DNA of 64,000 nucleotides, taken from positions 193 through 64,192 of the forward strand of contig DATDTA010000145.1 in assembly GCA_035291085.1 (NCBI GenBank). Direction: 5' to 3'. Every line of letters starts with the position of its first letter. Position 1 is the stretch's first letter. The translations under genes and the position numbers were made by a program. Positions 5,046-55,492 of the stretch are shown here, piece after piece. The DNA comes from Candidatus Nanoarchaeia archaeon (GTDB taxonomy: Archaea > Nanobdellota > Nanobdellia > Woesearchaeales > GW2011-AR9). The notes beneath the pieces are model-generated. The model was not told the origin of the DNA. It was given only the letters and a program-made list of their open reading frames with translations, and did no database searches.

Positions 5046-5046
5046 A

Positions 5047-5487: not shown

Positions 5488-5509
5488 ATTAAAATTTTTC
5501 TCTTTATAT

Positions 5510-6190: not shown

Positions 6191-6196
6191 TTTTTA

Positions 6197-9115: not shown

Positions 9116-9214
9116 ACGTGAAAGGAATGAAACCGTATTTAAAGGTGATGAAAAGAGGTTCTTTTAGGAAGTGGAACAAAACAAATTAAAAAAGTAGAAA
9201 AAATAAAACCGTAG

Positions 9215-22083: not shown

Positions 22084-22114
22084 AAATCTGCAAGAAATTT
22101 TTCCTTTAAAAGGT

Positions 22115-39135: not shown

Positions 39136-40812
39136 ATGAAAGAGATAGACGATTTTCTACGTAACTGGACTACCAAAAAAAAATGGCGAGGAAAAAAGAT
39201 AGATGAAATCCTGCAGATCGATGGCATCCCGTTATGGTCTTTTTACCATCGTTCATTTACTTCCCATGTCATGCCAAAACACTTAAACACCTTTCCGTTG
39301 CTAGAAAAAAAAAAATCATTGACTAAGACTACCGAAATCTTCCTAGCCGCCAAGGCAGCGATGCTGCGAAAATATCTTCTCTGGAATGAACAGAAAAAAA
39401 TACATTCCATAGTAAAAAAAGAGAAAAATGGGGAAAACCAGCCTGCGGCCAGCGCTGATAAGGAAAACGATGATAAGGAAAAAATACTCTTCTTAAGCTA
39501 TACTGACCATCTTACTTCCCAGGGAACTGTTTTTCGCATCCAGCCACTGATCGATAAAATAAAAAAAGATGGTATCTGCCAACCTTTCTTACTTCTCGCT
39601 AATCCACTATCCAGCGCTAAGCATAAAAAATTGCAACGGCAAGGCGCAAAGCAAAACACGATATACCAATACTATAGCCCAGAAATAGAAATTTTCGCAA
39701 AAGAAAAAAGCGCCACTCTCTCACAAGCATGGAAAGATATTCCTGAAGCAGTGAAAAATGAATTTTTTACCTTAGAAGAACAGAACATATGGCCGTACTT
39801 AAAACCAGCTTTCTCTTTCTTTTTCTCCCCAGAAATGATTTATGTGACAGCATTATATTATGAAATAGCTAAAAAAATACTGCGGCAGGAAAAAATAAGA
39901 ACGGTAGTGCTGACTTCTCAAAGCGGGTTTTTTGAGAAATGTTTTCTTGCTGCTGCAGCCGTTCAAAATACTACTCAAAATAAAAGTAAAGCGAAAATCC
40001 CCGTGTTCCAGATACAGCACGGCATCGGGTCTGGTGCCTTGGACACATCGTATGCAACTAAGCGTTTGATCTTCAGTGATTTCCACAAGAAGGAGCTCCT
40101 CACTGTCGGGGTTGATGAGGAAAATATCTTCATAACCGGACCGATTATTTTTGATGAGATGCATCATTATAAAAAAACAATCTCACCCCTAAATCAAGCA
40201 ACACTGGAGAAGCAGCGCCTACTGATAATAACATCTGCTTTTATCGAAGATAATCTCACCACTAAAGAGCAGTATTTTAGACGAATAGAACGCCTCTTGG
40301 CCGAATCAAAAAATATCCCGAACTTAGAGATAATTTTTAAATTACATCCTCGGGAAAAACATCTTCGGGAATACCAAAAGACGTTGCAGCGTCAAGGAAT
40401 GCAAGCGAAGATTCTGCAGCACATCTCTCGAGAAGAATTCTACCGGGTGCTGCAGAACAGTACCGCAGTGATAAATTTTGGCTCCACTGCCGGTTTCGAA
40501 GCCATCCTGTTCGACAAGCCACTACTTACGATAGACATTGCCGACTTGCGTCTTAACCCAAAACGCGATACTTATTGCCTGTTGATTCTTGAAAATGATG
40601 CAGGGATAAATATTCCTTATCGAGAAGACCTTGCTCACCATCTTTGCTCCTTGCTAGAAGATGCGGGGTGGAAACCTCAGCGCCAAGACTTCATCAGTAA
40701 ATATTGTTACAAGAACGACGGGAAAGCTTCGGAAAGATCCGCTGAGATAATTTATTCCTCGCTGGGGTATAAATACCCCGCTGCTCTGCAGCGATTAGCG
40801 AGGAATGATTGA
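39136..40812 (+). CDS. Putative GT-B-like polyol-phosphate/capsule transferase (TagF/KpsC-like C-terminal half). Function uncertain.
   Basis: C-terminal region with FKLHPREKH and INFGSTAGFEAILFDKPLL resembles CDP-glycerol glycerophosphotransferase-type motifs. The N-terminal 250 aa are unassigned. Confidence 0.35.
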   Translation: MKEIDDFLRNWTTKKKWRGKKIDEILQIDGIPLWSFYHRSFTSHVMPKHLNTFPLLEKKKSLTKTTEIFLAAKAAMLRKYLLWNEQKKIHSIVKKEKNGENQPAASADKENDDKEKILFLSYTDHLTSQGTVFRIQPLIDKIKKDGICQPFLLLANPLSSAKHKKLQRQGAKQNTIYQYYSPEIEIFAKEKSATLSQAWKDIPEAVKNEFFTLEEQNIWPYLKPAFSFFFSPEMIYVTALYYEIAKKILRQEKIRTVVLTSQSGFFEKCFLAAAAVQNTTQNKSKAKIPVFQIQHGIGSGALDTSYATKRLIFSDFHKKELLTVGVDEENIFITGPIIFDEMHHYKKTISPLNQATLEKQRLLIITSAFIEDNLTTKEQYFRRIERLLAESKNIPNLEIIFKLHPREKHLREYQKTLQRQGMQAKILQHISREEFYRVLQNSTAVINFGSTAGFEAILFDKPLLTIDIADLRLNPKRDTYCLLILENDAGINIPYREDLAHHLCSLLEDAGWKPQRQDFISKYCYKNDGKASERSAEIIYSSLGYKYPAALQRLARND

Positions 40813-44000: not shown

Positions 44001-44204
44001 GCCGATGGTAACATAATCTACTTCTTCAATAGTGATTCCTGCAATTTCCAAACATTTCTCTATGGCGCGCTTAGGAAATCCGCCCCTGTTTTTTACTCTT
44101 TGAAGTCTTTCTTCAGAAATAGCGCAGACTAATTCTCCATTCTTAATCACACAAGCAGAAGCATCGTGAGAATCATTTATTCCAACTACAATTAATGGTT
44201 TCAT
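41028..44204 (-). CDS. Fusion: NodU/CmcH carbamoyltransferase (about aa 1-600) joined to a C-terminal aminopeptidase-like (M28-like, DUF4910-type) domain with a terminal winged-helix.
   Basis: N-terminus MKPLIVVGINDSHDASACVIKNGELVCAISEERLQRV. The C-terminal half has CHPSMCNDNLSGVV, a YHTSADDLDF metal-binding-like block and a terminal wHTH-like LLDIAVRSKRPFNVILEHAEILLEKGLL. Confidence 0.75.
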   Translation of the reverse strand: MKPLIVVGINDSHDASACVIKNGELVCAISEERLQRVKNRGGFPKRAIEKCLEIAGITIEEVDYVTIGNQQVSCANLHNLITSMNIRDHYTLEEKYWQPVIYDKKDIKLADVFPHHKAKGGNYYPLQNIPFAFNRELNEEAKEMTSIVRREYIETYFNLPSERVIFVDHHLSHAYFGYYTNPLRTQKKDFLVLTADAGGDGTYETVNVFRNGKHECIHRAHDNVIAKMYSSITLLLGMKPHEHEYKVMGLAPYSRGYEKERPFKVFMECLDVEGLKFKRNPEMTDFFKYFQEKLKGCRFDGIAGGVQDFAEELMVKWVSNCIKETGIKDVVISGGLALNIKINKRLAELEMVDSLYIPPGAGDESLSIGSAYVLLDRLKLDQLNYKNIPTLTHAYLGNEASKTEIEQLLNHPLIQERYDIIANASADDIAQLLAAGEICAVFQGRMEFGPRALGHRSILANPSDQQAVAKINEAIKQRDFWMPFTPSILTERISDYVINPKQINCSYMTIGFDTTPLGRKHLAAAIHPFDKTARPQRVEPESNPLYYKIIKAFERKTGIGAVLNTSLNIHGKPIVMKPIEIAEEIISVEDVQLDNIYVEGYLLRKKKFIERAEEVESAGSGVEKWVKEKDIEKGVGTEMYALMQRLFPICRSITGKGVRETLQIIKEHLPTLEVFEVPTGTKVFDWTVPKEWNIKDAYVLNSKGVKVIDFQRSNIHVVSYSIPVHQKMGLEELKKHLHTLPEHPDWIPYSTSYYKEDWGFCLTHRELEALPEDQYEAVIESSLTEGSLTYGEMFLPGKNPEEVLLTCYVCHPSMCNDNLSGVVLLTQLIKELQSRCSNYYSYRFLFIPETIGAITWLARNERNIGKIKHGLVATCVGGPGPVSYKKSRRGDALIDQVAEKILRDSNEPYQILDFFPTGSDERQFCSPGFNLPVGSLMRSHYTSFPQYHTSADDLDFVKPEHLAASLSRYLEVLEVLEHNELYINTNPKGEPQLGRRGLYALRGAQRNTSLSQECFLWILNLSDGEHSLLDIAVRSKRPFNVILEHAEILLEKGLLQKA

Positions 44205-45424
44205 CTTTTATCTCCACGGAAAAAGTTAATGTCTTTATCCAATTGCTTAAAAGCCTCATTATATAATACTTCAGTATCAGCAAGCAATAGCTTTCCATTT
44301 CCAATTTTAACTTTATTAATCAATTTATTCTCTAATAGATATTTCTCAAATAAGGAAGCATCATAAACTACATTCTCATCTAAATTCCTAACGAAATAAG
44401 TGCAGGAATCTTTGAACTCTCTTCCAAAAATTCTAAGCGTTCCTTCAAAAGTTTTCATATACCTGTAAGGAACACCATAGCTTTGCTCTACGTAATGCAT
44501 GAAGGTTGCTGATTGAAATTTAGCTCCAAAGAATAAAATTTTGGCTTTTTCTTTATGCAGTTTTCCGAATATGGAATCTTTTCCAAAACAATCAGCTTCC
44601 ACATTTTTAAACTTCTTCTTATCCTTGCCAAAGATTGCAGCTGAAAAAATCGGATGTATTGTTCTTCCAGGCTTTTCAAAATTCCTAAAATGTTCAGATA
44701 ATACTCCTACGGTAGATGGCGAAAATTCCGGATCATAAACCTGATTATGGCAGTAGCTGTAAGTAAAAGTGGGCATAATAATTGTTCCATTTCCTACACT
44801 TTCTTTTAAAGCTTCAATTAAACTATTTAATAATGAGTTCCTATTTCCTCCAGACAGCTTTCCAAACACAGAAATATCGCTGTGAACAAAAATGGAATCT
44901 CCTTTATTTACCCCAACTTTCTTTAAAGCTTCAACAAAATCTTGATAGTAAAGCTTGTCTTCTCCAAAAATAAATAACGGGTTTTTTTCATAAGTTATAG
45001 GAAGAATTTGCACCGTCCCTGTTCCTTTAAACACGCATTCGCCATTTTCCCTATACATTTTAGTTGAAATCTCCACAAAATGGGTAGAATTACTTTTCCC
45101 CATCACTTCTCCTATTACTTTTATCTTATCTCCAATAAAATAAGGCTTGATATATTTGGCATCCTGTTTAATGCAGATGGAACTCCCCCCCGGTAAATGT
45201 TCTCCGTATAACGTAGACAGCAATGAAGTTAACATAAATCCATAGCCTATCTGCCGCCGATACTCCGTCTGAGAAAAATAATTCTTATCCCAATGAATCG
45301 GACTATAATCATCAACTAATCCTGCAAACAGTTTATGTTTCTGCAGATCTATTTCCATCTCAAATCCTGCTTTCTGGCCAACTGCTATTTCTGAGAATGC
45401 CCACGCTTTATTTCGATGTTTCAT
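44201..45424 (-). CDS. Fusion: MaoC-like hotdog (R-hydratase) domain joined to an AAC(3)-family (Antibiotic_NAT-like) N-acyltransferase domain.
   Basis: N-terminal YSPIHWDKNYF (MaoC dehydratase signature region). C-terminal FVHSDISVFGKL and TIIMPTFTYS match the conserved aminoglycoside 3-N-acetyltransferase blocks. Confidence 0.6.
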   Translation of the reverse strand: MKHRNKAWAFSEIAVGQKAGFEMEIDLQKHKLFAGLVDDYSPIHWDKNYFSQTEYRRQIGYGFMLTSLLSTLYGEHLPGGSSICIKQDAKYIKPYFIGDKIKVIGEVMGKSNSTHFVEISTKMYRENGECVFKGTGTVQILPITYEKNPLFIFGEDKLYYQDFVEALKKVGVNKGDSIFVHSDISVFGKLSGGNRNSLLNSLIEALKESVGNGTIIMPTFTYSYCHNQVYDPEFSPSTVGVLSEHFRNFEKPGRTIHPIFSAAIFGKDKKKFKNVEADCFGKDSIFGKLHKEKAKILFFGAKFQSATFMHYVEQSYGVPYRYMKTFEGTLRIFGREFKDSCTYFVRNLDENVVYDASLFEKYLLENKLINKVKIGNGKLLLADTEVLYNEAFKQLDKDINFFRGDKR

Positions 45425-45497
45425 TTGTTTACGATGTCTCTTAATTTTAGTATCATAAACATTGAAAATACCTGATTAATCCTGCAATTATGTATTT

Positions 45498-45725
45498 TCA
45501 TTTTCTGCTTACAATTTCACATAAATCTTTGAAAGTAATTATTTGATCAATCTCTTCCAGAGTAAATTCCAGATTCACTTTCCTTTCAATCTCAGCAATC
45601 AAAGCCAGATGATTGAATGAATCCCATTCAGAATTATTCTTGCGGGAAAAATTATCATCTATCTGATCAACCGAAATTTCCATTACTTCCGATATTATTT
45701 TTTTTAGCTGTTCCATTTTATTCAT
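45498..45725 (-). CDS. Acyl carrier protein (stand-alone).
   Basis: 75 aa. EWDSFNHLALIAEIE has Ser in the DSx phosphopantetheine-attachment context, with acidic helices. Confidence 0.7.
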   Translation of the reverse strand: MNKMEQLKKIISEVMEISVDQIDDNFSRKNNSEWDSFNHLALIAEIERKVNLEFTLEEIDQIITFKDLCEIVSRK

Positions 45726-46458
45726 AGATTATGTAAGACTGTAAAGGACTCAACACGCTTCTTTGAATTTTGAATTTATCCAATCCAAAAACTTCTTTTA
45801 AAGCAATAGTTTCTCCTGGACATTCCTTATAATTTAATTCATCGAAACCAATTATAGACCCTTTAGTTAGATGTCCTTTAATTAATTTTAAACACTCCTT
45901 AGTGGGCTGATAAATGTCCATGTCAAAATAAACTAAAGAAATAATAGTGTGAGGATTTTCTTGTAAATATTTTTTAAGAGTAATACTCGCATCTCCTTTT
46001 ATAATTTCAAATTTTTTAATATGAGGAATGGGGCTTTCTGATTCATGAAAATCTAAAATCTGTTTTAAATATTCTTCATATCCATGAGTAACCGAATAAT
46101 CACCGGTTTTCATTTGATGATCATTCTCGCTTACCATAGGAAAGCCTTCAAAAGTGTCAAACCCTACAATTTTTCGATTGTAATTGAATGGCTCTAACAT
46201 ACCTCTAAAATTAGAAAATAAGGCTAGGTTATGCCCCCATCTAACTCCTAATTCTATTACTATTCCGTGAGTTTCCAAAGATTTCTGATAAAGCTCATAC
46301 ATAAATAAAATTCTGGACATAGTTCTTCGATTAATGAATAACCCCAAATTGCCTAATAATTCCTGTTCCGGAATGGGTGTATTTTTAAATAACTGGAAGA
46401 ATTTTTCTCTATTAATCCTCTCTTGATTAGAGGTTCTTTCAATAGTATTAAAGTCCAT
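45718..46458 (-). CDS. TylF/MycF-family (macrocin O-methyltransferase-like) class I SAM methyltransferase.
   Basis: GIVIELGVRWGHNL (ExGxxxG), FDTFEGFP, YFDMDIYQPT (metal-binding DxDxY). Confidence 0.7.
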   Translation of the reverse strand: MDFNTIERTSNQERINREKFFQLFKNTPIPEQELLGNLGLFINRRTMSRILFMYELYQKSLETHGIVIELGVRWGHNLALFSNFRGMLEPFNYNRKIVGFDTFEGFPMVSENDHQMKTGDYSVTHGYEEYLKQILDFHESESPIPHIKKFEIIKGDASITLKKYLQENPHTIISLVYFDMDIYQPTKECLKLIKGHLTKGSIIGFDELNYKECPGETIALKEVFGLDKFKIQRSVLSPLQSYIIYE

Positions 46459-46496
46459 TTTACCATTAAATTTTAGCTAGAATCTGTTTAAAAATG

Positions 46497-46516
46497 TTTT
46501 GGTCTACTGTTCTTTT
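46497..46516. promoter_or_regulatory. 17-nt motif TGGTCTACTGTTCTTTT about 40 nt upstream of TylF-like methyltransferase 1. A second copy lies at 48331-48350 upstream of TylF-like methyltransferase 2.
   Basis: Identical 17-mer read in both locations. Both copies lie 5' of paralogous minus-strand methyltransferase genes. Confidence 0.45.
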
Positions 46517-46519
46517 ACA

Positions 46520-46747
46520 CTAAAAAAGCCAGCCTTGGCATGAATGGATGGTCCTGGCTTTTTGGTGCCTAAAGATGTGTTTTAATCCGGCATCTAAACA
46601 GACTTTATTCTCAAACCAGCTTATATCAAATCCATTTACAATCAACCTTCCAGCAAAAAGAGATACTGACTGGCCATATTGTTCGCTATTAAATTTCTCC
46701 CAAAGAGAGTGATAAATTTCACTGAGCTTTGCCTCGCTTTCTTTCAT
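46520..46747 (-). CDS. Small hypothetical ORF 6 nt downstream of the dioxygenase gene.
   Basis: 75-aa ORF on the same strand, tightly spaced. No motif recognised. It overlaps a hairpin-like sequence at 46530-46560. Confidence 0.25.
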   Translation of the reverse strand: MKESEAKLSEIYHSLWEKFNSEQYGQSVSLFAGRLIVNGFDISWFENKVCLDAGLKHIFRHQKARTIHSCQGWLF

Positions 46748-46752
46748 AGAGA

Positions 46753-47487
46753 TTAATTTTTTTTATCAACAAGAATTGAAATTTCGATGCTGACTCTAGT
46801 TCTATCATTAGTTCCAACAACCCCGGCATGCAGGAGCTTATCATGGAAGATAATAATATCTCCTGGGTTTGTGGGGATAACTGTTGCTTTATCAGAAACA
46901 TCTTTTACTGTTGTAGCTTTCCCATATTCTCCAATAGTAAATTCATACTCTTGTTTTTGAGAATGAGGAACAACCATTAATCCAGCTTTTCCCGGCTCGC
47001 AGTAAACGGCTATCCAGGCTTTTAACATTTGCTTGCCTTTAGGCAGACTATATTTGGAACGCTGCCAGAACCAATAATCTGCATGCATGAGGGCAGCATC
47101 ACTTTTTTCAAATGGTCTAACTAAACGCCAATAAATATCTTCTCTTCCTAAATGCCCATTAACCGGACATAAGTCTGTTGCAGAAAATTCTCCTAATACT
47201 TTGCTTAATACCGAAAAGATAGAAAATTTTTTGATTGCATCCACCTGCTCTTTAGAAAAAATTCTAACTGGTTTTGGCCAGGCTTCACTATGATTAATCA
47301 TGTGCGCACTTTTATGATATTCTTCAATAGGACAGTTTAGGAATAAAGAGTAATTATCTTGATATTTGTTCTTAAGATTATCATGATAACTTTTGTTAAT
47401 AAAATTACGGATAGTTGCCAGTTCAGATGTGGATAATTTTAAGTTGGTAATAAAACCGGTTCCTTCATTAAGTTCATTCATAACCAT
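46753..47487 (-). CDS. PhyH-like Fe(II)/2-oxoglutarate-dependent dioxygenase.
   Basis: LMHADYWF (HxD facial triad) and a distal FHDKLLHAG (second His). 244 aa. Confidence 0.6.
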   Translation of the reverse strand: MVMNELNEGTGFITNLKLSTSELATIRNFINKSYHDNLKNKYQDNYSLFLNCPIEEYHKSAHMINHSEAWPKPVRIFSKEQVDAIKKFSIFSVLSKVLGEFSATDLCPVNGHLGREDIYWRLVRPFEKSDAALMHADYWFWQRSKYSLPKGKQMLKAWIAVYCEPGKAGLMVVPHSQKQEYEFTIGEYGKATTVKDVSDKATVIPTNPGDIIIFHDKLLHAGVVGTNDRTRVSIEISILVDKKN

Positions 47488-47500
47488 CTAAACCACCGTT

Positions 47501-48199
47501 TTAAGCTTTGTAATTTTGGATTATAAATCTTCTGCAATTAAAGCCATACATTCCGGCATCTTCAGACTTAATAGAAAATTTCTTTACCGCTTCCAGCCAG
47601 GCGCGTCTTTCTCCGTTCTCATTATCATTGGCGGAAGCATTAAACTCATCAAAGCAAATCATTGCTCCTTGACTAATCATGCTTTTAGAAAATATATAAT
47701 TTAAAACCTCTTCAGTAGATTCATAAAGATCACAGTCAACATGGACTAAAGCAAATTTCTGGTTTTCTGGAAGCTGGGGAAGAGTTTCATTGAACCATCC
47801 CGGATAAATTTTGAGATTATTAATATATTTTTCACATTTTTTTCTGACAGATTCTGGATTGCCTTTGAAATCACCTTTTTTCCATTTGCCCTGGGCTACT
47901 TCTTTCATTCCTGAAGCTATACTCTTTATTTCAGGAAGCCCTTGGAAACTGTCAAATAATAATAAAGCCTTATTATTTTTCTTTATTCTGGATAAAGCAT
48001 AGCTGATATAAGAAGCGCTGAACCCATTCGAAACTCCAAATTCAGCAATATCCCCATCAACTAAGGAATAACTCACGTAATTTACTGCGCTGATAAGACC
48101 TTGCTCACGCTGTAAGGCAGTTTCATTCCAGCTTAGCCTTTGCAAGTTTCTAAGAATATTTCTCTTTAATAATTTAAAATGCCTAATATATTTCTCCAT
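47501..48199 (-). CDS. Second TylF/MycF-family SAM methyltransferase, paralog of 45718..46458.
   Basis: GDIAEFGVSNGFS, FDSFQGLP, HVDCDLYEST. Confidence 0.7.
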   Translation of the reverse strand: MEKYIRHFKLLKRNILRNLQRLSWNETALQREQGLISAVNYVSYSLVDGDIAEFGVSNGFSASYISYALSRIKKNNKALLLFDSFQGLPEIKSIASGMKEVAQGKWKKGDFKGNPESVRKKCEKYINNLKIYPGWFNETLPQLPENQKFALVHVDCDLYESTEEVLNYIFSKSMISQGAMICFDEFNASANDNENGERRAWLEAVKKFSIKSEDAGMYGFNCRRFIIQNYKA

Positions 48200-48243
48200 C
48201 TCTCTAAAAAACAGTAATGTTTTTATAAAGATATCTGTTCTTA

Positions 48244-48331
48244 GATAAAGTCAACTAAACAATCATATCAATCACCTCTCCGACAAACAAAGAAGAACCA
48301 ATATATAGAATTATGTTTAGTTGACTTTATC
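48244..48331. repeat. Perfect 18-bp inverted repeat GATAAAGTCAACTAAACA ... TGTTTAGTTGACTTTATC around a 52-nt spacer. It abuts the second copy of the TGGTCTACTGTTCTTTT motif.
   Basis: Read directly. Arms at 48244-48261 and 48314-48331. It lies in the divergent region between 47501..48199 (-) and 48415..49038 (+). Confidence 0.75.
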
Positions 48332-48414
48332 TGGTCTACTGTTCTTTTTTCAAGACCATTTTCAAGAGCCTTATTGCGTAATCTTTATATTCCCAAAATA
48401 AGCAGTCTTAAGAT

Positions 48415-49038
48415 ATGAGCAACCAAACCAACAGTTATTTGGTCGGCTATAACTGCGGAATTAGTATTGAGATAGAAAGCTTTCCTATCTCTCAGCGCAG
48501 CCTGCGTTATCAGCAACAAGAAAACCCTTCCCTCAGTTTGGGAGACCAAGTCATTTATGCTGTAGCTCAAGTGCTACCTAAATTCCCGGAGTTCAACAGC
48601 TATTTCTCGGGGGAAGTAACAAAATACCCTTCTATTAATATCGCGTACTCAATCAATCTTGGAAAAGGACCAAAAAAAGTAGTGCTCAAAAACGCCGATA
48701 AGCTCTCCTTAGTAGAAGTTTCCTACGCCGTAAAGGCCTTCGCCTTTAAGTATATGCGGGAAAATCTGACTGAAGCTGACACAGAGGGAGCAACGACCTC
48801 CATCCTTAATCTTTCTTTTTTCAATCCCTACAGCGTGGTCACTCCTCTTTTCGCCGACCAAGCCGCCCTCCTTACCATAGCTTCTGAACGGGAGATTGTA
48901 AAAATAGTGCAAGAAAAGGCAGTGGCACAGAAAGTTTTCAATCTTTGCCTAGCCTATGACGTACGGGTTGCTGACTGCCAGAGGGCTTTGCAATTTCTCA
49001 ATGCCATAAAAGATATATTAGAAAAAAAAGAAGCGTAG
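48415..49038 (+). CDS. CAT/E2-fold (2-oxoacid dehydrogenase acyltransferase catalytic-domain-like) protein with an atypical active-site block.
   Basis: C-terminal LCLAYDVRVADCQRALQFLNAIKDILE aligns with the E2 motif SFDHRVIDGAxAARFL, but has Val in place of the catalytic His. 207 aa. Confidence 0.4.
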   Translation: MSNQTNSYLVGYNCGISIEIESFPISQRSLRYQQQENPSLSLGDQVIYAVAQVLPKFPEFNSYFSGEVTKYPSINIAYSINLGKGPKKVVLKNADKLSLVEVSYAVKAFAFKYMRENLTEADTEGATTSILNLSFFNPYSVVTPLFADQAALLTIASEREIVKIVQEKAVAQKVFNLCLAYDVRVADCQRALQFLNAIKDILEKKEA

Positions 49039-49070
49039 AATTTAAGTTCCAGCCATTTAAGCGGATTCAC

Positions 49071-50918
49071 TCAAGCCTTTTTACTTAATTTTTCCTGGTA
49101 ATACTGCTGCAGCATTCTATATAGCACTTTTTTGGTCGGCCCTTTAGGAATATCTGGCAAATCCGGCAGATTATTAATAATAATTATTTCCTTAGGCTGC
49201 TTATACCCGGCTATTTTATCTGAAAGGAAATGACGTAAATCCTCTTCCCGCACCGAGAGCCATCCTTTGTCTTCCTTAAGCTTGACAAAAGCACAAACTT
49301 CCTGTCCCAGTAGCTTACTGGGTATGCCGAACACCGCACATTCTGCTACGGCAGGATGCTTAAAGAGAACATTTTCAACTTCACTGGGATAAATGTTTTC
49401 TCCACCTTTGATGATCAGGAAATCTTTCCTGGTTTTGAAATAGATGTATCCGTCTGCATCCATATAACCGTAATCCCCACTATGAAACCAGCCGTTCCTA
49501 AAAGTTTGATAGTTTTTTTCCGGAAGCATGAAATATTCATTTGCAACATTCAAACCACGTATACAGATTTCACCCTCTTGGCCCAAGGGCAATTCATTAC
49601 CATCATCATTGCGGATGCTGATTTTATTAACAGGAAGAGCCTTGCCCACGGTTCCTACTTTTCGTTTTTCCGCAGGGAAATCATTGAAGCAGGCAAAGGA
49701 AGTAGTTTCCGTCAAACCGTAACCCTCAAACACCGGGATCTTAAAGCGGGATTCAAATTGGTTTTGCATCTCTCTGGTTAAGGGCTGCCCTCCGCAGATT
49801 ATACCTTGCATAGATTGGTCAGTGCGCTCCAGCGGCAGGCTCAACAAAATGGAAAGAATGGAAGGCATGACGCTGATCCAGTTGATGTGATATTGTTCAA
49901 TGAGACGCCAAAACGTCATCAAGCTGGTTTTACCCTGCACCATCACGGTTGAACCGCCGGCATAGAGAGGGCTTAGCAAGGTTACAACCTGCCCATTATT
50001 ATGAAAGAGTGGAAGCAGGCCTAAAGTCCTGGTTGAGGACGAAAACAGGAACCATTCAGAAAGCGCTTTGGCATCAGCCAGCAAATTGAGATGAGTAAGC
50101 ACCACGCCCTTAGGATTTCCCGTCGTTCCAGAGGTATAGATTATGACTGCTTTATCAGTTGGACTAACTTCAGGTGTTTGAAACAAATGCGCAATCGTTT
50201 GCGCAGATGAGTCGGAAAAATATTCTGAAGAAAAAAATTTTTCTGTTGAATAAAAAGTAGCGAGGGGGGCAGCGACAGCCCCTATTTTCGATTCTACAAT
50301 AGGATCAAAGAGAACCATTTTTGTTTGCGAATTAGTAATAATAAATTCCATCTCTGGAGGTGAAAGATCGGGGTTGATGGGCACGACCACTACTCCCAGC
50401 GCCAGCGCGGCAAAATAAAGTGATACGAAAGAAGAGGAAGTAGGGATGATTAAACAGAGGCGATGGCCGGGCTGTAGGCCATGTTCACCCTGAAGCTGAG
50501 CGGCAACCAATTTAATTTTATAGTCAAAATCCTGATAAGTAAAGGACTCATCTTTATCCGGAAAGAAAATAAAATCCTTTGCCAAAAAAAGTTCTTTTTT
50601 GGCTAAGAACAGTTCATAGACATTCTGGTATTCGATAGCAAATGGTTTTTCCAGACGCTGGTGCGGCAGCAGCATTTCTGAATTGATGGGCAATCCTTTT
50701 CTATTCTGAAGGTATTTACGAAGAATTGCTAGAATTGCTGGAACACCGGTCATGCGCAAAGTATCTTTATATTCCAATCTAATGCCAAACTCTTTTTCCA
50801 GCGCCGCTAAGAGCTGAATATGCTTCAGGGAATCCCAGCGCGGAGTATTGGCCATAGTCAAATCAATACTATAACTGCCCATTATTTTCTCAAACACTTC
50901 ACGAAGTTTTTGTTCCAT
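49071..50918 (-). CDS. Fusion: N-terminal ACP domain joined to an acyl-AMP/acyl-CoA ligase (adenylate-forming enzyme).
   Basis: N-terminal PRWDSLKHIQLLAALE (DSL phosphopantetheine site). AMP-binding motif IYTSGTTGNPKGVVLTH and C-terminal GWFHSGDYGYMDADGYIYFKTRKDFLIIKGGENIYP. Confidence 0.8.
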   Translation of the reverse strand: MEQKLREVFEKIMGSYSIDLTMANTPRWDSLKHIQLLAALEKEFGIRLEYKDTLRMTGVPAILAILRKYLQNRKGLPINSEMLLPHQRLEKPFAIEYQNVYELFLAKKELFLAKDFIFFPDKDESFTYQDFDYKIKLVAAQLQGEHGLQPGHRLCLIIPTSSSFVSLYFAALALGVVVVPINPDLSPPEMEFIITNSQTKMVLFDPIVESKIGAVAAPLATFYSTEKFFSSEYFSDSSAQTIAHLFQTPEVSPTDKAVIIYTSGTTGNPKGVVLTHLNLLADAKALSEWFLFSSSTRTLGLLPLFHNNGQVVTLLSPLYAGGSTVMVQGKTSLMTFWRLIEQYHINWISVMPSILSILLSLPLERTDQSMQGIICGGQPLTREMQNQFESRFKIPVFEGYGLTETTSFACFNDFPAEKRKVGTVGKALPVNKISIRNDDGNELPLGQEGEICIRGLNVANEYFMLPEKNYQTFRNGWFHSGDYGYMDADGYIYFKTRKDFLIIKGGENIYPSEVENVLFKHPAVAECAVFGIPSKLLGQEVCAFVKLKEDKGWLSVREEDLRHFLSDKIAGYKQPKEIIIINNLPDLPDIPKGPTKKVLYRMLQQYYQEKLSKKA

Positions 50919-50927
50919 TAGTCTTTC

Positions 50928-51869
50928 CTATTTTACTGAATCTTTGAAATGATCAATGATGTTTTCTGCCGCCCGCCTAGCCATCATCGAACGGCATTCC
51001 TTAGTTGCCGTTCCGATATGCGGAATAATCAAACAATTATCTTTTTTACAGAGCGGATGGCTGGCCGGAAGCGGCTCGGGATCAGTCACGTCGAGGCATG
51101 CTCCCCGAATGAATCCCTTTTGCAATGCCTCGACTAAATCGTCAGTATGGACCACCCCGCCACGGGCCATGTTGATCAAAACTGGCTTCTTCTGCATCTG
51201 CAGGAACTCTTTTTTGCCGATAAAATGTTTTGTTTCCTTGGTCAATGGGAGGTGCAGGGAAATATAATCTGCATTATTGAGGAGAAAAGGCAGTTCTACC
51301 TGCTGAATCGCGACCGGGATTGGTTCATCTGCCGGAGGTGTCGACCGGTTATAGTAAATGACCTGAAGACCAAAACCTAATGCTCTTTTGGCTACAGCTC
51401 TTCCAATTTTACCAAAACCGATGATACCCAGCGTTTTTCCGGAAAGTTCTTCACCGAGAAAAAGTTCAGGATCCCATGATTTCCATTTATCCTGATAAAT
51501 AAAATCACGGGCCGAGTGAATTTTCCTGGTCCAGGCTAAAAGTAAAGCCAAAGTCAGATCCGCAGTACTCTCGGTTACCACATTCGGAGTATTATATATA
51601 GAGATTCCTTTACTTTGCGCTGCAGCCAGATCAATATTATCTAAACCCACAGCGTAATTAGAAATTACCTGTACAGAACTATTATTAAGAATATCCGCGG
51701 TCATTTTTTCCGATACGGTCGTTAAAATTCCATCGTAGTTGGAAGTGATTTCTTTTAACTTTACTAGCGGTAACGGAGCATTTTCTTCAGAAGAGTCAAC
51801 CTGAAAATGTTTACCCAAAAGTTCTTTGGCTATCGGAGGCAAGCGCCTGGTTATAAAAATTCGCTTCAT
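50928..51869 (-). CDS. D-isomer-specific 2-hydroxyacid dehydrogenase (glyoxylate/hydroxypyruvate reductase-like).
   Basis: GKTLGIIGFGKIGRAVAKRA (NAD-binding), catalytic His region IIPHIGTAT. Confidence 0.8.
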   Translation of the reverse strand: MKRIFITRRLPPIAKELLGKHFQVDSSEENAPLPLVKLKEITSNYDGILTTVSEKMTADILNNSSVQVISNYAVGLDNIDLAAAQSKGISIYNTPNVVTESTADLTLALLLAWTRKIHSARDFIYQDKWKSWDPELFLGEELSGKTLGIIGFGKIGRAVAKRALGFGLQVIYYNRSTPPADEPIPVAIQQVELPFLLNNADYISLHLPLTKETKHFIGKKEFLQMQKKPVLINMARGGVVHTDDLVEALQKGFIRGACLDVTDPEPLPASHPLCKKDNCLIIPHIGTATKECRSMMARRAAENIIDHFKDSVK

Positions 51870-51872
51870 GTT

Positions 51873-53132
51873 TTATGATGGTACTTTTGTCGTACTCCTC
51901 CGCAAAAATTCACCTACTTTCTTCATTGCTTCATCAATTTTATCTAAATCATGAACTAGAGGGCCAAACGAAATTCTGACTGCTTCTTGCTGAGATCTTC
52001 CAAAACCCCAACCTGGAACAAAGAGCACACCAGTTGCTTTCAATACTTCCTCGACAAAGACAGCACTATCGCGACCTACTTTCATACAAGTATAAAGACC
52101 GCCCTGGGGCACAAAACAAGGCAAGCCGATATGTTCATGAATCGCTTGTACTGTTTTCTCTGCCGCTTTCTTATAAAGAGCATTTACATCTTTAAGATAC
52201 GTATGTAGACTTCCGTCAGCGATAGCTTTTTCGAGATACGTGGTTAAAGCCATTTGATGTAAAGTATCTGGACAAAGAATCGCTGATGATTGCACCGATT
52301 CAAATACGGAAATCACTTCTTCACTTGCTTCGATCCAACCCAGGCGCCTGCCTAAACCACGGCACCATTTAGAATTCGAATGCAGCGAGAGGTAATTATC
52401 GCTTGGGGGCCAGGAAAAATATTCTGGAAGCTGATCTTCGAAAACGAGGTCTTTGTAAGCAAAATCAATCACCAAGAAACCACTTGTCTCTTCCAGCGCT
52501 TGACGAGCCGCTTGGACAAAAGCATGCGGTAGTACCTGAGAAGTCGGGTTGTCTGGAGCTACCAACAACACTACTTTCGGTTTTTCCTTTCGGATGAATT
52601 GGGCAAATTCTTGAATTTTCTTCTCGGGAATATATTCCCATTTTTCTTCATCAACCACAGGAAAACGAATTATGTCTACGTCCAAAGCAGTTGTAATCTG
52701 CGTCGGGAAATTACAATAAGCTGGATCAAGCAGCAGGATTTTGTCATGCGGATCAAGCAATACCTGGAAAATATCAAAGGTCATCTGGGTAGAATTTGCG
52801 CCAATAGCGATCTGTTCGGGATGAAGTCCCCGCAGGTTGTAGATATGTTGTTCATATTTCACTAATGCTTCTTTACAAGCTAGCATCCCCAAAGTGGGTG
52901 AATACCCGCCAGACTGGTGCAATTTTTCCTCATCATTAATTATTTCCGCATAGGCTTGCTGCATTAATTTAGGAGTTTTATGGTTAACCCATCCCCCAGC
53001 AAAGGAAATCACTTCTTTCGATTCGAAACCTAACTTCTTAAAATAGGCAGGGTTGGCATAGCTCATGATCTGCCGCACCGGAGAGATCTGCCGTCTAAAC
53101 ATTACCGCTTTTTTTGAAAGTTCTGGTCTCAT
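51873..53132 (-). CDS. Class I/II PLP-dependent aminotransferase.
   Basis: LSLHSNSKWCRGLGRRLGW (SxSK PLP-lysine motif), about 420 aa. Confidence 0.75.
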   Translation of the reverse strand: MRPELSKKAVMFRRQISPVRQIMSYANPAYFKKLGFESKEVISFAGGWVNHKTPKLMQQAYAEIINDEEKLHQSGGYSPTLGMLACKEALVKYEQHIYNLRGLHPEQIAIGANSTQMTFDIFQVLLDPHDKILLLDPAYCNFPTQITTALDVDIIRFPVVDEEKWEYIPEKKIQEFAQFIRKEKPKVVLLVAPDNPTSQVLPHAFVQAARQALEETSGFLVIDFAYKDLVFEDQLPEYFSWPPSDNYLSLHSNSKWCRGLGRRLGWIEASEEVISVFESVQSSAILCPDTLHQMALTTYLEKAIADGSLHTYLKDVNALYKKAAEKTVQAIHEHIGLPCFVPQGGLYTCMKVGRDSAVFVEEVLKATGVLFVPGWGFGRSQQEAVRISFGPLVHDLDKIDEAMKKVGEFLRRSTTKVPS

Positions 53133-53156
53133 TATTTCATTTCACCTCTAACATTA

Positions 53157-53891
53157 TCACGTCATCCCGCCATCAACATTTATCACTTGTCCATTCACAT
53201 AGCTGGCCAAATCACTAGCCAGAAAAAGAGCAACCCGAGCTATCTCTTGTGGCTGGCCAATCCTTTTTAGGATGGTTTGATTCAGCAAACGTTCCCGCTG
53301 TTCAATCGTAAGGTAACTAATCATTTCTGTTTCTGTCAATCCTGGAGCTATAGCATTGACAGTAATGCCAATCGGCCCTAGCTCTTTTGCTGCAGTCTTG
53401 GTAAAACCAATTATCCCTGCCTTGCTAGAGCTATAAGCAGCTTGCCCGGGGTTGCCGAATAAACCCATCACTGAAGTGATATTGATTATCTTCCCCCCGC
53501 TAAGGAGCATTATCTTAGCTGCTTCTTTAGTGCAGAGAAAAGTTCCTTTAAGATTTGTGCCTAATATCGCTTCCCACTCCGCTTCCTCAGTCTTGAGAAT
53601 TAAATTATCCTTCAAAATGCCGGCGTTATTGATCAATACATCCAGTCGACCAAAAATTTTTTTGACTTCAGAAAACAAATGCTGCACCTGATCTGCTTTG
53701 CTGATATCTGCCTGAATAGCGATAGCGGTTGGGCAAATAGTTTTTATTTCTTGCAGGGTTTGCTGCAAAGAATCCTCGCTATGGAGATAGTTTATGATCA
53801 CTGTTGCTCCTTGTTGTGCGAAAAGAATAGCGATGGCCTTCCCGATCCCTTTGCTGGCACCAGTAATCAAAACAACTTTATTCTGAAGCAT
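53157..53891 (-). CDS. Short-chain dehydrogenase, 3-oxoacyl-ACP reductase (FabG)-like.
   Basis: VVLITGASKGIGKAIA (TGxxxGxG), NNAGI, YSSSKAG (YxxxK). Confidence 0.85.
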   Translation of the reverse strand: MLQNKVVLITGASKGIGKAIAILFAQQGATVIINYLHSEDSLQQTLQEIKTICPTAIAIQADISKADQVQHLFSEVKKIFGRLDVLINNAGILKDNLILKTEEAEWEAILGTNLKGTFLCTKEAAKIMLLSGGKIINITSVMGLFGNPGQAAYSSSKAGIIGFTKTAAKELGPIGITVNAIAPGLTETEMISYLTIEQRERLLNQTILKRIGQPQEIARVALFLASDLASYVNGQVINVDGGMT

Positions 53892-53895
53892 ATCC

Positions 53896-54291
53896 TTAAT
53901 CTCTCCGCTTTATCTGAATTTTTTCTTTCTCTTGAATGATAACAAAAGCTACTGCTTTATCTTCACAATGCGACAGGCTGATTTTGCTTTGTAAACCAGC
54001 GTACTTTTGATGATGGATTCTTATTGAAGGAACGCCATCTTGAAGATGATAAATCTCAATTTGTGTAAATGGGACGGCTTTTTTTCCCAAACCGTAAAGA
54101 GCTTTGATGATTGCTTCCTTAGCTGCAAATCGCACAGCTAGATGTGGAGCAGGATTTTTCTTTGAAAGACAGTATGCTAATTCATCAGCAGTATAGATCT
54201 TACTAAAAAAGAGACTATCTTCGGATTGCTTCAATCCGCGAAAGCGACTGATACTCTCTATATCCACGCCTATGCCGCAAGTCCAGTTCAT
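53896..54291 (-). CDS. AcpS-type 4'-phosphopantetheinyl transferase (holo-ACP synthase).
   Basis: GIGVDIESISRF, 131 aa, C-terminal SLSHCEDKAVAFVI. Confidence 0.75.
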   Translation of the reverse strand: MNWTCGIGVDIESISRFRGLKQSEDSLFFSKIYTADELAYCLSKKNPAPHLAVRFAAKEAIIKALYGLGKKAVPFTQIEIYHLQDGVPSIRIHHQKYAGLQSKISLSHCEDKAVAFVIIQEKEKIQIKRRD

Positions 54292-54330
54292 GCATTACCT
54301 CGTTTTTGAGCATTTAAATACTTTCTGAAG

Positions 54331-54837
54331 TTATGTTCTTTCTAAAAAAGATTTCCGATCAAGAGCATAATGAAAAATCCGTGAATCGCTACCATCAATC
54401 CTCAAAAAATGAAAACCAAAACTCTCAAAAAGCTTCTTAGATATTTCATTGTGCTGCATGATTCGTGCGGTAATGGTATGTACATTCTCTTGAGAGAGAT
54501 ATTCTTCAAAAGCAAGACTTAAGGATTTCTTCCCATACCCTTGCTGCCGAAAATCTGGATTGAGATTGATGCTCACCTCCGCTTCCTCATCACGACGATC
54601 GAAGCGGATCATTCCGACCTTCTGCTGTTCGAGATTGACAATTAAATACAGCCGAGTAGACGGTTTCTGCAGTACATTTAAATACCACTTTTCATGAATT
54701 TCCAGAGCAACTTCTCCAGTAGGAGAGAAAGCTATGCTTACGGGATCATTTCGCCAACGTAGGATATCCCAACAGTCATCCATTGTAGCAAGACGAAGCG
54801 AGATATTAATACTCCTTAAATTCTGGTAGTGGCCCAT
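54331..54837 (-). CDS. GNAT-family N-acetyltransferase.
   Basis: 168 aa. RQQGYGKKSL (acetyl-CoA binding Q/RxxGxG/A block). Confidence 0.65.
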   Translation of the reverse strand: MGHYQNLRSINISLRLATMDDCWDILRWRNDPVSIAFSPTGEVALEIHEKWYLNVLQKPSTRLYLIVNLEQQKVGMIRFDRRDEEAEVSINLNPDFRQQGYGKKSLSLAFEEYLSQENVHTITARIMQHNEISKKLFESFGFHFLRIDGSDSRIFHYALDRKSFLERT

Positions 54838-55492
54838 ATTTTTCTTCTAATTGCTTTTTTCCCATTGCGATTTTCTGAGGATCAGCGGTAAAAGAGCGCG
54901 GATGTCTTTTATATAAATACAAGGGTTTAGGAACATGCACTCCTTTATATTTAGTGAGGATGCGAAACAGCAAGTCGTATTCTGGAAACATAAAACGCTG
55001 GTCCCAGAAGCCAATTTCTTCGAGAATTTTCTTCCGAAAAAGAATTCCTGCTGCAAGTGTATTCAAGATGTTTTTGCAGCTTATTTCTTTTCTTGCGTTA
55101 GTGCGCAAGTCAATTTCATGATAATCACTGTAGGCAAACGCATATTCACGGCGGTTGCTATAATCTTCATATGGGGCCCCAGATTGAAGACCACTATAAA
55201 GCTCTGAGAGCATATTTGGACTGCATTCATCATCACCATCGAGAAAAACCACATATTCCCCTCTCGCTAAGCGTAGCCCTTCATAACCAGCTTTGATCAT
55301 GCCTTGGTTCTGTTGATGTAATACACGTAATCTGGGGTGATGAAAGGAATCGATGAGGTCACGAGTTTCTTTTTCACTCCCGTCGTCAATAACGAGAATC
55401 TCAAAGTCAGCAAAATCCTGCCGCAAAGCGCTCCGAATTGCTTTGTCAACTAGATTGAGATCGTTATGGGTGCGAATAATTAAGGAAATCAT
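54806..55492 (-). CDS. GT2-family glycosyltransferase.
   Basis: ISLIIRTHNDLNLVDKAIRS, VIDDGSEKET, FLDGDD (DxD). Confidence 0.7.
   Translation of the reverse strand: MISLIIRTHNDLNLVDKAIRSALRQDFADFEILVIDDGSEKETRDLIDSFHHPRLRVLHQQNQGMIKAGYEGLRLARGEYVVFLDGDDECSPNMLSELYSGLQSGAPYEDYSNRREYAFAYSDYHEIDLRTNARKEISCKNILNTLAAGILFRKKILEEIGFWDQRFMFPEYDLLFRILTKYKGVHVPKPLYLYKRHPRSFTADPQKIAMGKKQLEEKYGPLPEFKEY

Follow-up and report, generated by a model that had tools for sequence, protein, structure and literature searches.

The enzymes responsible for attaching the N-acyl groups of nonulosonic acids (NulOs) are almost entirely uncharacterised (PMC5378307). We analysed a 64-kb stretch of contig DATDTA010000145.1, assigned to a Candidatus Nanoarchaeia archaeon and in the following called the window, in which genes for pseudaminic acid (Pse) adjoin a cassette encoding two predicted acyl carrier protein (ACP) domains, an acyl-AMP ligase, a fusion of a MaoC-type dehydratase with an AAC(3)-fold N-acyltransferase and a DUF4910 protein. 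The closest described system is Cj1295-Cj1302 of Campylobacter jejuni, with which the window shares DUF4910 (40-43% identity) and AAC(3)-fold (36%) genes, located there near pseB/pseC. Cj1295, the DUF4910 protein, is genetically required for 5-(2,3-di-O-methylglyceroyl)-Pse7Ac, the authors proposing an N5 de-N-acetylation, and Cj1296/7 is listed as N-acetyltransferase (PMC3068675); cj1302 encodes an FkbH domain (PMC7099621). Publications of 2026 bring no further biochemistry and cite solely the 2010 genetics of Cj1295. Flagellin glycosylation islands of Aeromonas contain genes for an ACP, a 3-oxoacyl-ACP reductase and an AMP-synthetase near pse genes (PMC7874193). Our literature searches returned nothing on bacteria of the Candidate Phyla Radiation (CPR) in connection with Pse and, for FkbH in connection with flagellin glycans, nothing beyond one mention.

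FkbH pathways of polyketide synthesis provide methoxymalonyl-ACP and, via DH*-KR*-FkbH-ACP modules, the lactate starter units of FR901464 and bryostatin. The proposed common feature with the window is a three-carbon hydroxy acid held on a dedicated carrier and O-methylated, or dehydrated and reduced; in polyketide systems the acyl group is passed to a ketosynthase and dehydrated by a polyketide synthase (PKS) DH domain, whereas in the window it would be passed to a sugar amine, the dehydratase is of the MaoC type and there is no FkbH. Dedicated carrier and ligase systems that decorate surface glycans include RfbK-O of Vibrio cholerae O1 (tetronate on perosamine), DltABCD and NodF/NodA; their transferases are not homologous to those of the window, they have no deacetylase partner and none targets a NulO. 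We found no open-access paper on the tetronate ACP system of V. cholerae.

A Campylobacter metagenome-assembled genome (MAG) likewise contains methyltransferases, a loader and a carrier, the latter being of the same type (W-x-S-L-N-H in Campylobacter). Campylobacter loads the carrier by FkbH, whereas the window has no FkbH; its methyltransferases are of the Methyltransf_23 type, and it has no MaoC fusion, no AcpS of its own, no E2-like protein, no route from aminotransferase and D-2-hydroxyacid dehydrogenase (HADH) to a ligase and no carbamoyltransferase fusion, all of these being found in the window. The target in Campylobacter is flagellin, whereas the window locus encodes a Wzx flippase; CPR bacteria are not known to be flagellated. 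Cassettes of the type FkbH-ACP-MaoC/AAC(3)-methyltransferase-DUF4910, known from genes alone in Clostridia, Acidobacteria, Woesearchaeota and CPR, share with the window the unit of stand-alone carrier ACP2 and MaoC-AAC(3) at 45-65% identity, DUF4910, the adjacency to PseF/NeuB and Maf and flagellin neighbours; they differ in that the window has an aminotransferase, a 2-hydroxyacid dehydrogenase and a carrier-ligase fusion where FkbH stands. An earlier note on this DNA, written from the sequence by a model, had regarded a carrier system for NulO N-acylation as something that would be new. The Campylobacter homologs beside pseB/pseC, the genetics of Cj1295 and the Aeromonas islands precede it, and the cassette is a new variant of a system already visible in these genera, not a categorically new one. 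What appears to be new here is the ligase route replacing FkbH, the presence of two carriers, a dedicated AcpS and a rare E2-like protein that lost its His and has an invariant Cys.

Our data support, with moderate confidence, a model according to which the window encodes a carrier-protein-dependent N-acyl exchange system for Pse. This model is based on domains, motifs, synteny and gene fusions, all of its enzymatic steps being proposed.

Genomic context of the AAC(3) and DUF4910 proteins

We annotated the open reading frames (ORFs) of the window by Pfam and NCBIfam profile matches, which confirmed all domains that had been named for positions 44201-55492. The acyltransferase part of the MaoC fusion matches Antibiotic_NAT (PF02522) over residues 180-394 with 130 bits against a cutoff of 25. 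The hallmark of the AAC(3) fold is a TxΦHΦAE motif containing the catalytic His/Glu dyad (PMC8956665). In the window protein this motif reads TFMHYVE, and the acyl-transfer residues T307, H310 and E313 are present and invariant in 26 fusion proteins. Best matches of the whole fusion in the PDB are PhaJ (1iq6) and YokD (2nyg). Fold family and motif are shared with Antibiotic_NAT proteins such as YokD and FrbF; unlike the AAC(3) resistance enzymes, the window protein has a MaoC domain attached and a carrier as its partner, and its best score against the NCBIfam resistance equivalogs is 65.6 bits, far below the cutoff of 270. Because of the fusion to MaoC and the pairing with a carrier protein, the donor of the AAC(3) domain is probably an acyl-ACP and not acetyl-CoA. 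The MaoC-AAC(3) ORF is continuous over 407 aa, as in 25 other full-length fusions; the NCBI record A2822_04540 (P0002) annotates just a 265-aa AAC(3) protein without the MaoC domain.

The DUF4910 part, encoded just outside the interval 44201-55492 and overlooked in the earlier note, is the most informative partner of this protein. It matches PDB entry 3k9t, a 'putative peptidase', with 538.7 bits, and H183, E221, E293, H320 and D324, which resemble metal ligands, are conserved in nine homologs. The N5 acetyl group of Pse derives from UDP-GlcNAc, so a different acyl group at N5 needs a deacetylase; this need would fit the pairing and the fusions of AAC(3) with DUF4910.

Scanning one genome per GTDB species with a MaoC-AAC(3) alignment yielded 80 loci, the survey comprising 83 in total; ORFs of the loci were labelled by BLAST against the window proteins and Pfam-annotated metagenome neighbours (loci carry L numbers, proteins P numbers). 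DUF4910 is present in 56/83 AAC(3) loci and absent in 27/83. A loader was found in 61/83, being FkbH in 39/83 and an AMP-ligase in 23/83, many ligase labels standing for distant AMP-binding matches of 20-31% identity; both loaders occur together solely in L088, which holds two cassettes. Linkage to Pse genes was counted where full 10-kb flanks were available (41 loci): a homolog of the Pse pathway occurs in 26 of these, and NeuB or PseF in 21. The loci stem from Clostridia, Acidobacteria, Campylobacter, Helicobacter, CPR, Woesearchaeota and MAGs labelled Methanosarcinales, and their typical order is FkbH - ACP - MaoC/AAC(3) - methyltransferase - DUF4910 - PseF - NeuB, often with Maf and flagellin genes nearby. 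FkbH precedes ACP-MaoC-AAC(3) in 20/22 MaoC loci, the exceptions being L007 and L036 (the latter with a MaoC match of only 29% and FkbH still found). In the Campylobacter MAG the order is PseB-PseC-DUF4910-AAC(3)-ACP-MT-MT-x-FkbH (MT, methyltransferase), FkbH being confirmed by TIGR01686; the loci with a confirmed FkbH are L076 and L087. Homologs of AAC(3), DUF4910, ACP, FkbH and methyltransferase adjoin pseB/pseC in Campylobacter L076, L067 and L075. Several of the proteins are fused to each other, i.e. ACP with AAC(3) (P0052), AAC(3) with DUF4910 (P0094, L039), ligase with DUF4910 (L068), and both methyltransferase with DUF4910 and ACP with ligase (L035). Judged from these neighbourhoods, the linkage of the AAC(3)/DUF4910 pair to Pse genes extends across phyla. 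This linkage and the intact AAC(3) motif support what had been suggested before, i.e. an enzyme set that would build a small acyl group on a carrier and pass it to a sugar amine. As this gene combination is found again in many genomes that are unrelated, the grouping of the cassette is not due to chance.

For the Pse genes of the window, the triple fusion exceeds the NCBIfam cutoffs for PseC (507.5 bits, cutoff 423.5) and PseF (295.3 bits, cutoff 205.7). The candidate nonulosonate transferase at 39136-40812 has an ortholog of 43% identity at the equivalent position in L007.

Carrier domains and acyl supply

The earlier note had described an ACP-fused ligase. The AMP-binding domain is clear; the N-terminal domain (ACP1) reaches 16.8 bits, which is below the Pfam PP-binding cutoff, yet three observations support residues 1-70 as a predicted carrier domain. 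The region is a separate gene of 78 aa in the CPR loci L034, L041, L048 and L056, the ortholog scoring 25.1 bits and thus above the cutoff; an FkbH-associated ACP matches the ligase N-terminus in tblastn at E=2e-8; and an alignment of 11 carriers from these cassettes shows W-D-S-[LF]-x-H as a common motif, in which the Ser is invariant, the attachment Ser of ACP1 lying in RWDSLKH. In this alignment the carriers form two subtypes, a ligase type (ACP1) and an FkbH type (ACP2), and BLASTP of the two window carriers against each other gave no match. Two further short ORFs were rejected as carriers: the 75-aa ORF at 46520-46747 is a methyltransferase remnant, and the 87-aa ORF at 37165-37428 encodes a basic, hydrophobic peptide. 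The AcpS of the window shows the AcpS motifs. An AcpS accompanies the cassette in 19/80 GTDB genome loci, these being mostly labelled CPR or Woesearchaeota and the remainder Gammaproteobacteria or Methanosarcinales MAGs.

Searching the window by tblastn gave no match to FkbH anywhere in the 64 kb. Its position upstream of ACP-MaoC-AAC(3) is taken by the aminotransferase, the dehydrogenase and the carrier-ligase fusion, a trio that together with AcpS recurs at 55-62% identity beside AAC(3) and DUF4910 in the CPR loci L034, L041, L048 and L056. The aminotransferase has Thermus aspartate aminotransferase as its best PDB matches, and its orthologs of 59-62% identity always adjoin HADH, ACP and ligase genes; an assignment as alpha-oxoamine synthase (AONS/SPT-like), which would have meant chain extension, was discarded as the protein resembles aspartate aminotransferases. 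The dehydrogenase best matches the glycerate dehydrogenase/glyoxylate reductase 2cuk (247.6 bits) and human GRHPR (201.9 bits). In the alignment to solved relatives it keeps Arg, Glu and His, which we take to be catalytic, and the Trp of an 'SW' pair, presumably an active-site residue; its NCBIfam score of 295.9 is below the equivalog cutoff of 455. Fusions of HADH to ACP-ligase exist in P0124-P0129, L091 and L094, and from the dehydrogenase-carrier-ligase triple fusions (P0124-P0129) the product of the dehydrogenase is very probably the substrate of the ligase. The ligase is FadD/MenE-like and not of the amino-acid-adenylating type, belonging to a large family, of which 1233 proteins reach E<=1e-40 within the set of scored candidates. 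Since the ligase route stands where FkbH, a loader for glyceryl-ACP, otherwise precedes the ACP-MaoC-AAC(3) unit, our first guess for the ligase substrate is D-glycerate, formed from serine via hydroxypyruvate, with glycolate and lactate as close alternatives.

Relatives of the supply genes occur with other delivery enzymes. L090 (Nitrosopumilus sp.) has AcpS, aminotransferase, carrier and ligase genes adjoining a Hexapep acyltransferase and a Polysacc_deac_1 deacetylase, and L092 has the same set plus the dehydrogenase, again with Hexapep and Polysacc_deac_1. In L091 a FabG-like reductase (55%), an aminotransferase (62%), a dehydrogenase-carrier-ligase fusion, a di-domain ACP, MaoC, an E2-like protein (43%) and AcpS are encoded beside MBOAT and GDSL genes; this arrangement is Dlt-like and may serve to O-acylate a surface polymer with a hydroxy acid. 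The FabG-like protein of the window, a short-chain dehydrogenase/reductase (SDR), has its 55% ortholog in L091 adjoining the equivalent aminotransferase, HADH and ligase genes. From the contexts of L090, L091 and L092, FabG, MaoC, the second carrier and the E2-like protein are assigned to the supply set. The pairing of a deacetylase with an acyltransferase is repeated in L090 and L092 by non-homologous enzymes, which supports an N-acyl exchange. Judging from these loci, the ACP/ligase supply module is not NulO-specific. The earlier note had assumed its dedication to NulOs, which does not agree with homologs of 55-62% identity in the non-NulO glycan loci L091 and L092 together with other delivery enzymes; linkage to NulO genes holds for the AAC(3)/DUF4910 pair across phyla, whereas the ACP/ligase module is also found unlinked.

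Tailoring enzymes and the E2-like protein

The MaoC domain contains a GDxSPIH-type motif that aligns with the hydratase-2 motif of PhaJ (1iq6); D39 and H44 are invariant and presumably catalytic. Glyceroyl-ACP is a 3-hydroxyacyl thioester, dehydration of which leads via enol-pyruvoyl to pyruvoyl-ACP, and a reductase could convert the latter to lactoyl-ACP. DH*-KR*-FkbH-ACP loading modules of PKS convert glyceroyl via pyruvoyl to lactoyl in this manner. Locus L093, in which AcpS, NeuB and an E2-like gene adjoin an FkbH-ACP-MaoC-SDR operon, mirrors these modules, and by this analogy a lactoyl- or pyruvoyl-type product would be a serious alternative to a methylated glyceroyl group.

Two TylF-like methyltransferases had been reported for the cassette. 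This is correct for the protein at 47501-48199; the protein at 45718-46458 (MT2) stays below the Pfam cutoffs (E 3e-4 and 2e-3). PDB matches of the TylF protein are an unnamed O-methyltransferase (5i10, 4cdz) and the sugar O-methyltransferases NovP, mycinamicin III 3''-O-methyltransferase and CalS11. MT2 has orthologs of 65-87% identity adjoining the carrier gene in L007, L039 and L094, located in L039 between FkbH and ACP, and is a candidate on-carrier O-methyltransferase. In the PhyH-like protein the HAD...H and RxS motifs are visible; a sequence search of the PDB with it gave no match.

L094, a metagenome contig of 7.5 kb, is syntenic with the window; its gene order is dehydrogenase-carrier-ligase, an extra ACP, the E2-like gene on the opposite strand, TylF (80%), an intact methyltransferase gene of 239 aa (2203-2922), MT2 (87%), ACP2 (65%) and MaoC-AAC(3) (83% and 73%). 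The 75-aa ORF of the window is 92.7% identical over 164 nt to the 5' end of this methyltransferase gene and breaks inside motif I for S-adenosylmethionine (SAM) binding (LDAG|CGSG), and PhyH has no counterpart in L094. The remnant and the absence of a PhyH counterpart indicate that the window variant lost a methyltransferase and gained a PhyH oxygenase.

The AlphaFold model of the E2-like protein (pLDDT 84.8) superimposes in Foldseek with E2 catalytic cores at a TM of 0.84-0.86. The DHRxxDG motif is changed to DVRVADC, by which the catalytic His is lost; a reading of the protein as an ordinary acyltransferase using CoA or ACP was rejected for this reason. All stand-alone members inspected (11 aligned sequences and 14 further representatives) show the clade motif D-x-R-x-x-[DSNG]-C, in which His is absent and Cys occupies the Gly position, and the nearest relatives bearing lipoyl domains retain DHRxxDG. 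The clade (P0252-P0269) is rare, an exhaustive profile search giving about 20 cluster representatives at E<=1e-30 among 1.8 billion. Its genes always lie beside carrier or AcpS genes, and fusions exist with AcpS (P0258, P0260) and with a B12-radical-SAM domain (P0253). The protein may transfer acyl groups from one carrier to another in a thiol-dependent manner or, like E3BP, serve as a scaffold without catalysis.

Proposed mechanism and alternatives

According to the exchange model, AcpS would generate the holo forms of both carrier domains. The class I aminotransferase would turn an amino acid into a 2-oxo acid and the GRHPR-like dehydrogenase would reduce this to a D-2-hydroxy acid, our best guess being the sequence Ser, hydroxypyruvate, D-glycerate or an analogous route to glycolate or lactate; the FadD-like ligase would adenylate the hydroxy acid and load its own N-terminal carrier domain. 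On the carrier, MT2, the MaoC domain and the FabG-like reductase would modify the acyl group, and MaoC together with the reductase could convert glyceroyl via pyruvoyl to lactoyl, as in DH*-KR*-FkbH-ACP modules. The PhyH oxygenase and the TylF methyltransferase would act on the acyl chain or on the sugar, and the E2-like protein may shuttle the acyl group between the two carriers or be a scaffold. For delivery, homology and the C. jejuni genetics suggest that DUF4910 would de-N-acetylate Pse or one of its precursors, probably at N5, where the acetyl group stems from UDP-GlcNAc, and that the AAC(3)-fold domain would move the acyl group from ACP2 onto the liberated amine. The pathway would be completed by carbamoylation, by PseF-dependent activation with CMP, by the glycosyltransferase at 39136-40812 transferring the sugar and by Wzx flipping it.

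Several points weigh against this model. In the NCBIfam comparison the PseI domain reaches 278.9 bits, below the cutoff of 340, and the GNAT protein scores 52.2 bits for PseH, below 93.1; tblastn across the 64 kb with PseG-like references found no PseG and with PseB-like references just weak SDR matches of 25% identity. It is thus the PseC and PseF domains that support the assignment to Pse; genes for PseB and PseG may be located on another contig. Similarity at the family level cannot fix the hydroxy acid, and malate, 2-hydroxyglutarate, lactate and glycolate are also possible; starting from glycerate, FabG, MaoC and PhyH would not all be required. Without FkbH, the loading of ACP2 has no assigned enzyme, and the L007 contig, also without a loader, is uninformative in this respect, its upstream genes being unrelated. 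The supply module of Nitrosopumilus has no dehydrogenase, and those of L091 and L092 have no NulO genes within 10 kb. Lacking the canonical His, the E2-like protein may do no chemistry, as in non-catalytic E3BP. The amidohydrolase role of DUF4910 is hypothetical, and cj1295 is placed among 'putative transferases' in a paper of 2026 (PMC13130089).

The neighbourhoods without NulO genes lead to a different acceptor, an explanation to which we assign a low probability: the cassette would acylate another amino sugar of the same surface-glycan locus, made by the gene set at 12-23 kb, or a hydroxyl group by O-acylation. The aminotransferase-HADH-ACP-ligase set, in part with FabG, MaoC and the E2-like protein, occurs at 55-62% identity in glycan loci devoid of NulO genes within 10 kb, its partners there being MBOAT/GDSL (Dlt-like) or Hexapep/Polysacc_deac_1 enzymes; another gene set for amino sugars in the window consists of DegT, GFO/IDH, Epimerase_2 and a UDP-sugar dehydrogenase, and 15/41 full-flank AAC(3) loci have no Pse gene within 10 kb. 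However, delivery in the window is represented by the very AAC(3) and DUF4910 pair that is linked to Pse genes and to the di-O-methylglyceroyl-Pse of C. jejuni, the genes from AcpS to the ligase appear co-transcribed with the PseC-PseF-PseI fusion as judged by spacing and strand, and a candidate NulO transferase follows DUF4910 in both the window and L007.

Equally improbable in our view is that AAC(3) replaces or competes with PseH, acylating the UDP-4-amino-4,6-dideoxy sugar directly and thus at N7 without any exchange, in which case DUF4910 would trim, proofread or be a peptidase. It would agree with the GNAT protein being weakly PseH-like (52 bits against a cutoff of 93), with N7-glyceroyl Pse occurring in Tannerella forsythia (PMC5378307) and with the 27/83 loci in which AAC(3) stands without DUF4910, including the CPR loci L012 and L022 that carry a carbamoyltransferase instead. 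The co-occurrence of DUF4910 with AAC(3) in 56/83 loci and their fusion in at least two lineages argue for a joint function, as does the C. jejuni product, in which the new acyl group is on N5 and requires loss of the GlcNAc-derived acetyl; moreover, a non-homologous deacetylase accompanies another type of acyltransferase in L090 and L092. We consider it very unlikely that the product is a free small molecule or a lipid with no relation to glycans and that the position beside the Pse genes is incidental. ACP, AcpS, FabG, MaoC and a FadD-like ligase are typical parts of fatty-acid or natural-product pathways, but a ketosynthase, condensation domain or thioesterase is missing, and glycosyltransferase, flippase and Pse genes are intermixed with those of the cassette both in the window and in dozens of genomes.

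Beyond the N-acyl exchange for Pse in the window, we tentatively consider a wider scheme, which in its entirety is doubtful. It assumes a general modular system in bacteria and archaea that would remove an acetyl group from NulOs or other amino sugars and re-acylate them from a carrier, with interchangeable modules for supply (FkbH, or aminotransferase-dehydrogenase-ligase) and delivery (AAC(3) with DUF4910, Hexapep with Polysacc_deac_1, or MBOAT). In CPR, DPANN and Thaumarchaeota, which are not known to have type II fatty-acid synthesis, ACP and AcpS would have been retained for decorating glycans only; the E2-like clade would represent a new thiol-dependent transacylase moving acyl groups between two carriers, and the product an unseen N-acyl Pse carrying a methylated, hydroxylated and/or carbamoylated three-carbon hydroxyacyl group.

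Organization of the locus and further genes of the window

The contig occurs in several groundwater metagenomes of the Rifle type, and two of its proteins have NCBI names from Candidatus Staskawiczbacteria, a CPR (Patescibacteria) lineage, by which the window would derive from a CPR bacterium. The features are compiled in Table 1; coordinates are positions in the 64-kb window, and transcription on the minus strand runs from high to low coordinates. The tight packing of the genes and their common minus strand, except for the E2-like gene, were described correctly before, the intergenic gaps between minus-strand cassette genes being -32 to 73 nt. Around the plus-strand E2-like gene they amount to 215 nt to TylF and 32 nt to the ligase, and the 1058-aa carbamoyltransferase-DUF4910 gene overlaps the end of the MaoC-AAC(3) gene by 4 nt. 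Scans for promoters and terminators performed no better than on shuffled sequence. Three details of the former description need correction. The cassette had been placed upstream of the triple fusion and is transcriptionally downstream of PseC-PseF-PseI; PhyH had been listed after the two methyltransferases and sits between them; and the gene list, otherwise correct, omitted the GT2 gene at 54806-55492, the methyltransferase pseudogene at 46520-46747 and the DUF4910 fusion at 41028-44204, the last lying outside the interval.

Table 1. Predicted features of the Pse locus and its acyl cassette, in order of transcription on the minus strand
Feature	Coordinates	Strand	Evidence
PseC-PseF-PseI (NeuB+SAF) triple fusion: aminotransferase, CMP-transferase, nonulosonate synthase	55541..58510	-	Pfam DegT, CTP_transf_3, NeuB, SAF
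GT2 glycosyltransferase	54806..55492	-	Pfam Glycos_transf_2, 97.8 bits
GNAT N-acetyltransferase, weakly PseH-like	54331..54837	-	Pfam Acetyltransf_3/4/1
AcpS-type phosphopantetheinyl transferase	53896..54291	-	Pfam ACPS 71 bits; TIGR00556 74.9 bits vs cutoff 45.35
FabG-like SDR (ketoreductase)	53157..53891	-	TIGR01830 282.6 bits, below cutoff 297.75
Class I (aspartate-aminotransferase-like) pyridoxal phosphate aminotransferase	51873..53132	-	Pfam Aminotran_1_2
D-2-hydroxyacid dehydrogenase, glyoxylate/hydroxypyruvate reductase-like	50928..51869	-	PDB matches 2cuk, human GRHPR
Predicted ACP1 carrier domain (residues 1-70) fused to FadD/MenE-like acyl-AMP ligase	49071..50918	-	Pfam AMP-binding 274 bits
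Stand-alone E2-like (2-oxoacid_dh catalytic domain) protein	48415..49038	+	Pfam 92.7 bits
TylF-family O-methyltransferase	47501..48199	-	Pfam TylF 73.3 bits
PhyH-like Fe(II)/2-oxoglutarate oxygenase	46753..47487	-	Pfam PhyH 37.6 bits
Truncated SAM methyltransferase pseudogene, 5' remnant, 75-aa ORF	46520..46747	-	nt identity to intact L094 gene
MT2, TylF/Methyltransf_24-like methyltransferase	45718..46458	-	Pfam matches below cutoffs, E 3e-4 and 2e-3
ACP2, stand-alone carrier protein, FkbH-type (EWDSFNH)	45498..45725	-	Pfam PP-binding 25.1 bits vs cutoff 20.8
MaoC (R)-hydratase/dehydratase + AAC(3)-fold N-acyltransferase fusion	44201..45424	-	Antibiotic_NAT 130 bits, MaoC 37.9 bits
NodU-like carbamoyltransferase + DUF4910/DUF2172/HTH_47 M28-like amidohydrolase (Cj1295 homolog), 1058 aa	41028..44204	-	Pfam
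Candidate nonulosonate transferase	39136..40812	+	Weak BFO_1060-family and Epimerase_2/Glyphos_transf matches
Wzx-type flippase	37472..38968	-	Pfam Polysacc_synt
Second NodU-like carbamoyltransferase	35404..37164	-	Pfam Carbam_trans_N, Carbam_trans_C

The segment of 44.2-48.2 kb containing MaoC-AAC(3), ACP2, MT2, PhyH and TylF has a GC content of 30-35% compared to 41-44% in the flanking cassette genes, and the 228-nt methyltransferase remnant inside it has 39% GC. This low-GC island (44201-48199) is consistent with a later acquisition of that sub-module.

A carbamoyltransferase homolog of 61-73% identity accompanies FkbH-ACP-MaoC-AAC(3) in the CPR loci L012 and L022, which have no DUF4910; to our knowledge no carbamoylated nonulosonate has been described. 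Near the locus the window encodes a B12-binding radical-SAM protein of 698 aa (30915-33011), and several such proteins occur in related cassettes, five of them in L088.

Two further gene sets lie in the window. The set at 984-10609 comprises a 972-aa fusion of a cytidylyltransferase with PPDK_N and PEP-utilizer domains (PRK05849, 841 bits, above cutoff), a Peptidase_C26 protein with gamma-glutamyl-CDP-amidate hydrolase as best NCBIfam match (88.7 bits, below cutoff), a fusion of a pyruvate-kinase barrel with ATP-sulfurylase and a fusion of His_Phos_1 with a methyltransferase. We take it to resemble the O-methyl-phosphoramidate pathway of C. jejuni, and it may add a phosphoramidate or sulfate decoration to the same glycan. 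The set at 12407-23110 appears devoted to sugar modification and contains GT2, a Fic-domain gene, a methyltransferase, a GFO/IDH oxidoreductase, a DegT aminotransferase and HAD, followed by a 665-aa fusion of an ATP-grasp-like with an epimerase/dehydratase domain, UDP-GlcNAc 2-epimerase, GT2 and an LPG_synthase_TM protein.

Biological implications

The variety of N-acyl groups on nonulosonic acids shapes immune recognition, phage binding and motility. The locus and its relatives provide a concrete enzyme set with predicted roles, i.e. a loader, a carrier, an AAC(3)-fold transferase and an M28-like deacetylase, in which gene fusions specify the enzyme partnerships. The exchange of a methyltransferase for an oxygenase among close variants points to a fast diversification of surface glycans. 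By our reading of the locus, a genome-reduced host would devote about 15 kb, including its own phosphopantetheinyl transferase, to the decoration of one surface sugar.

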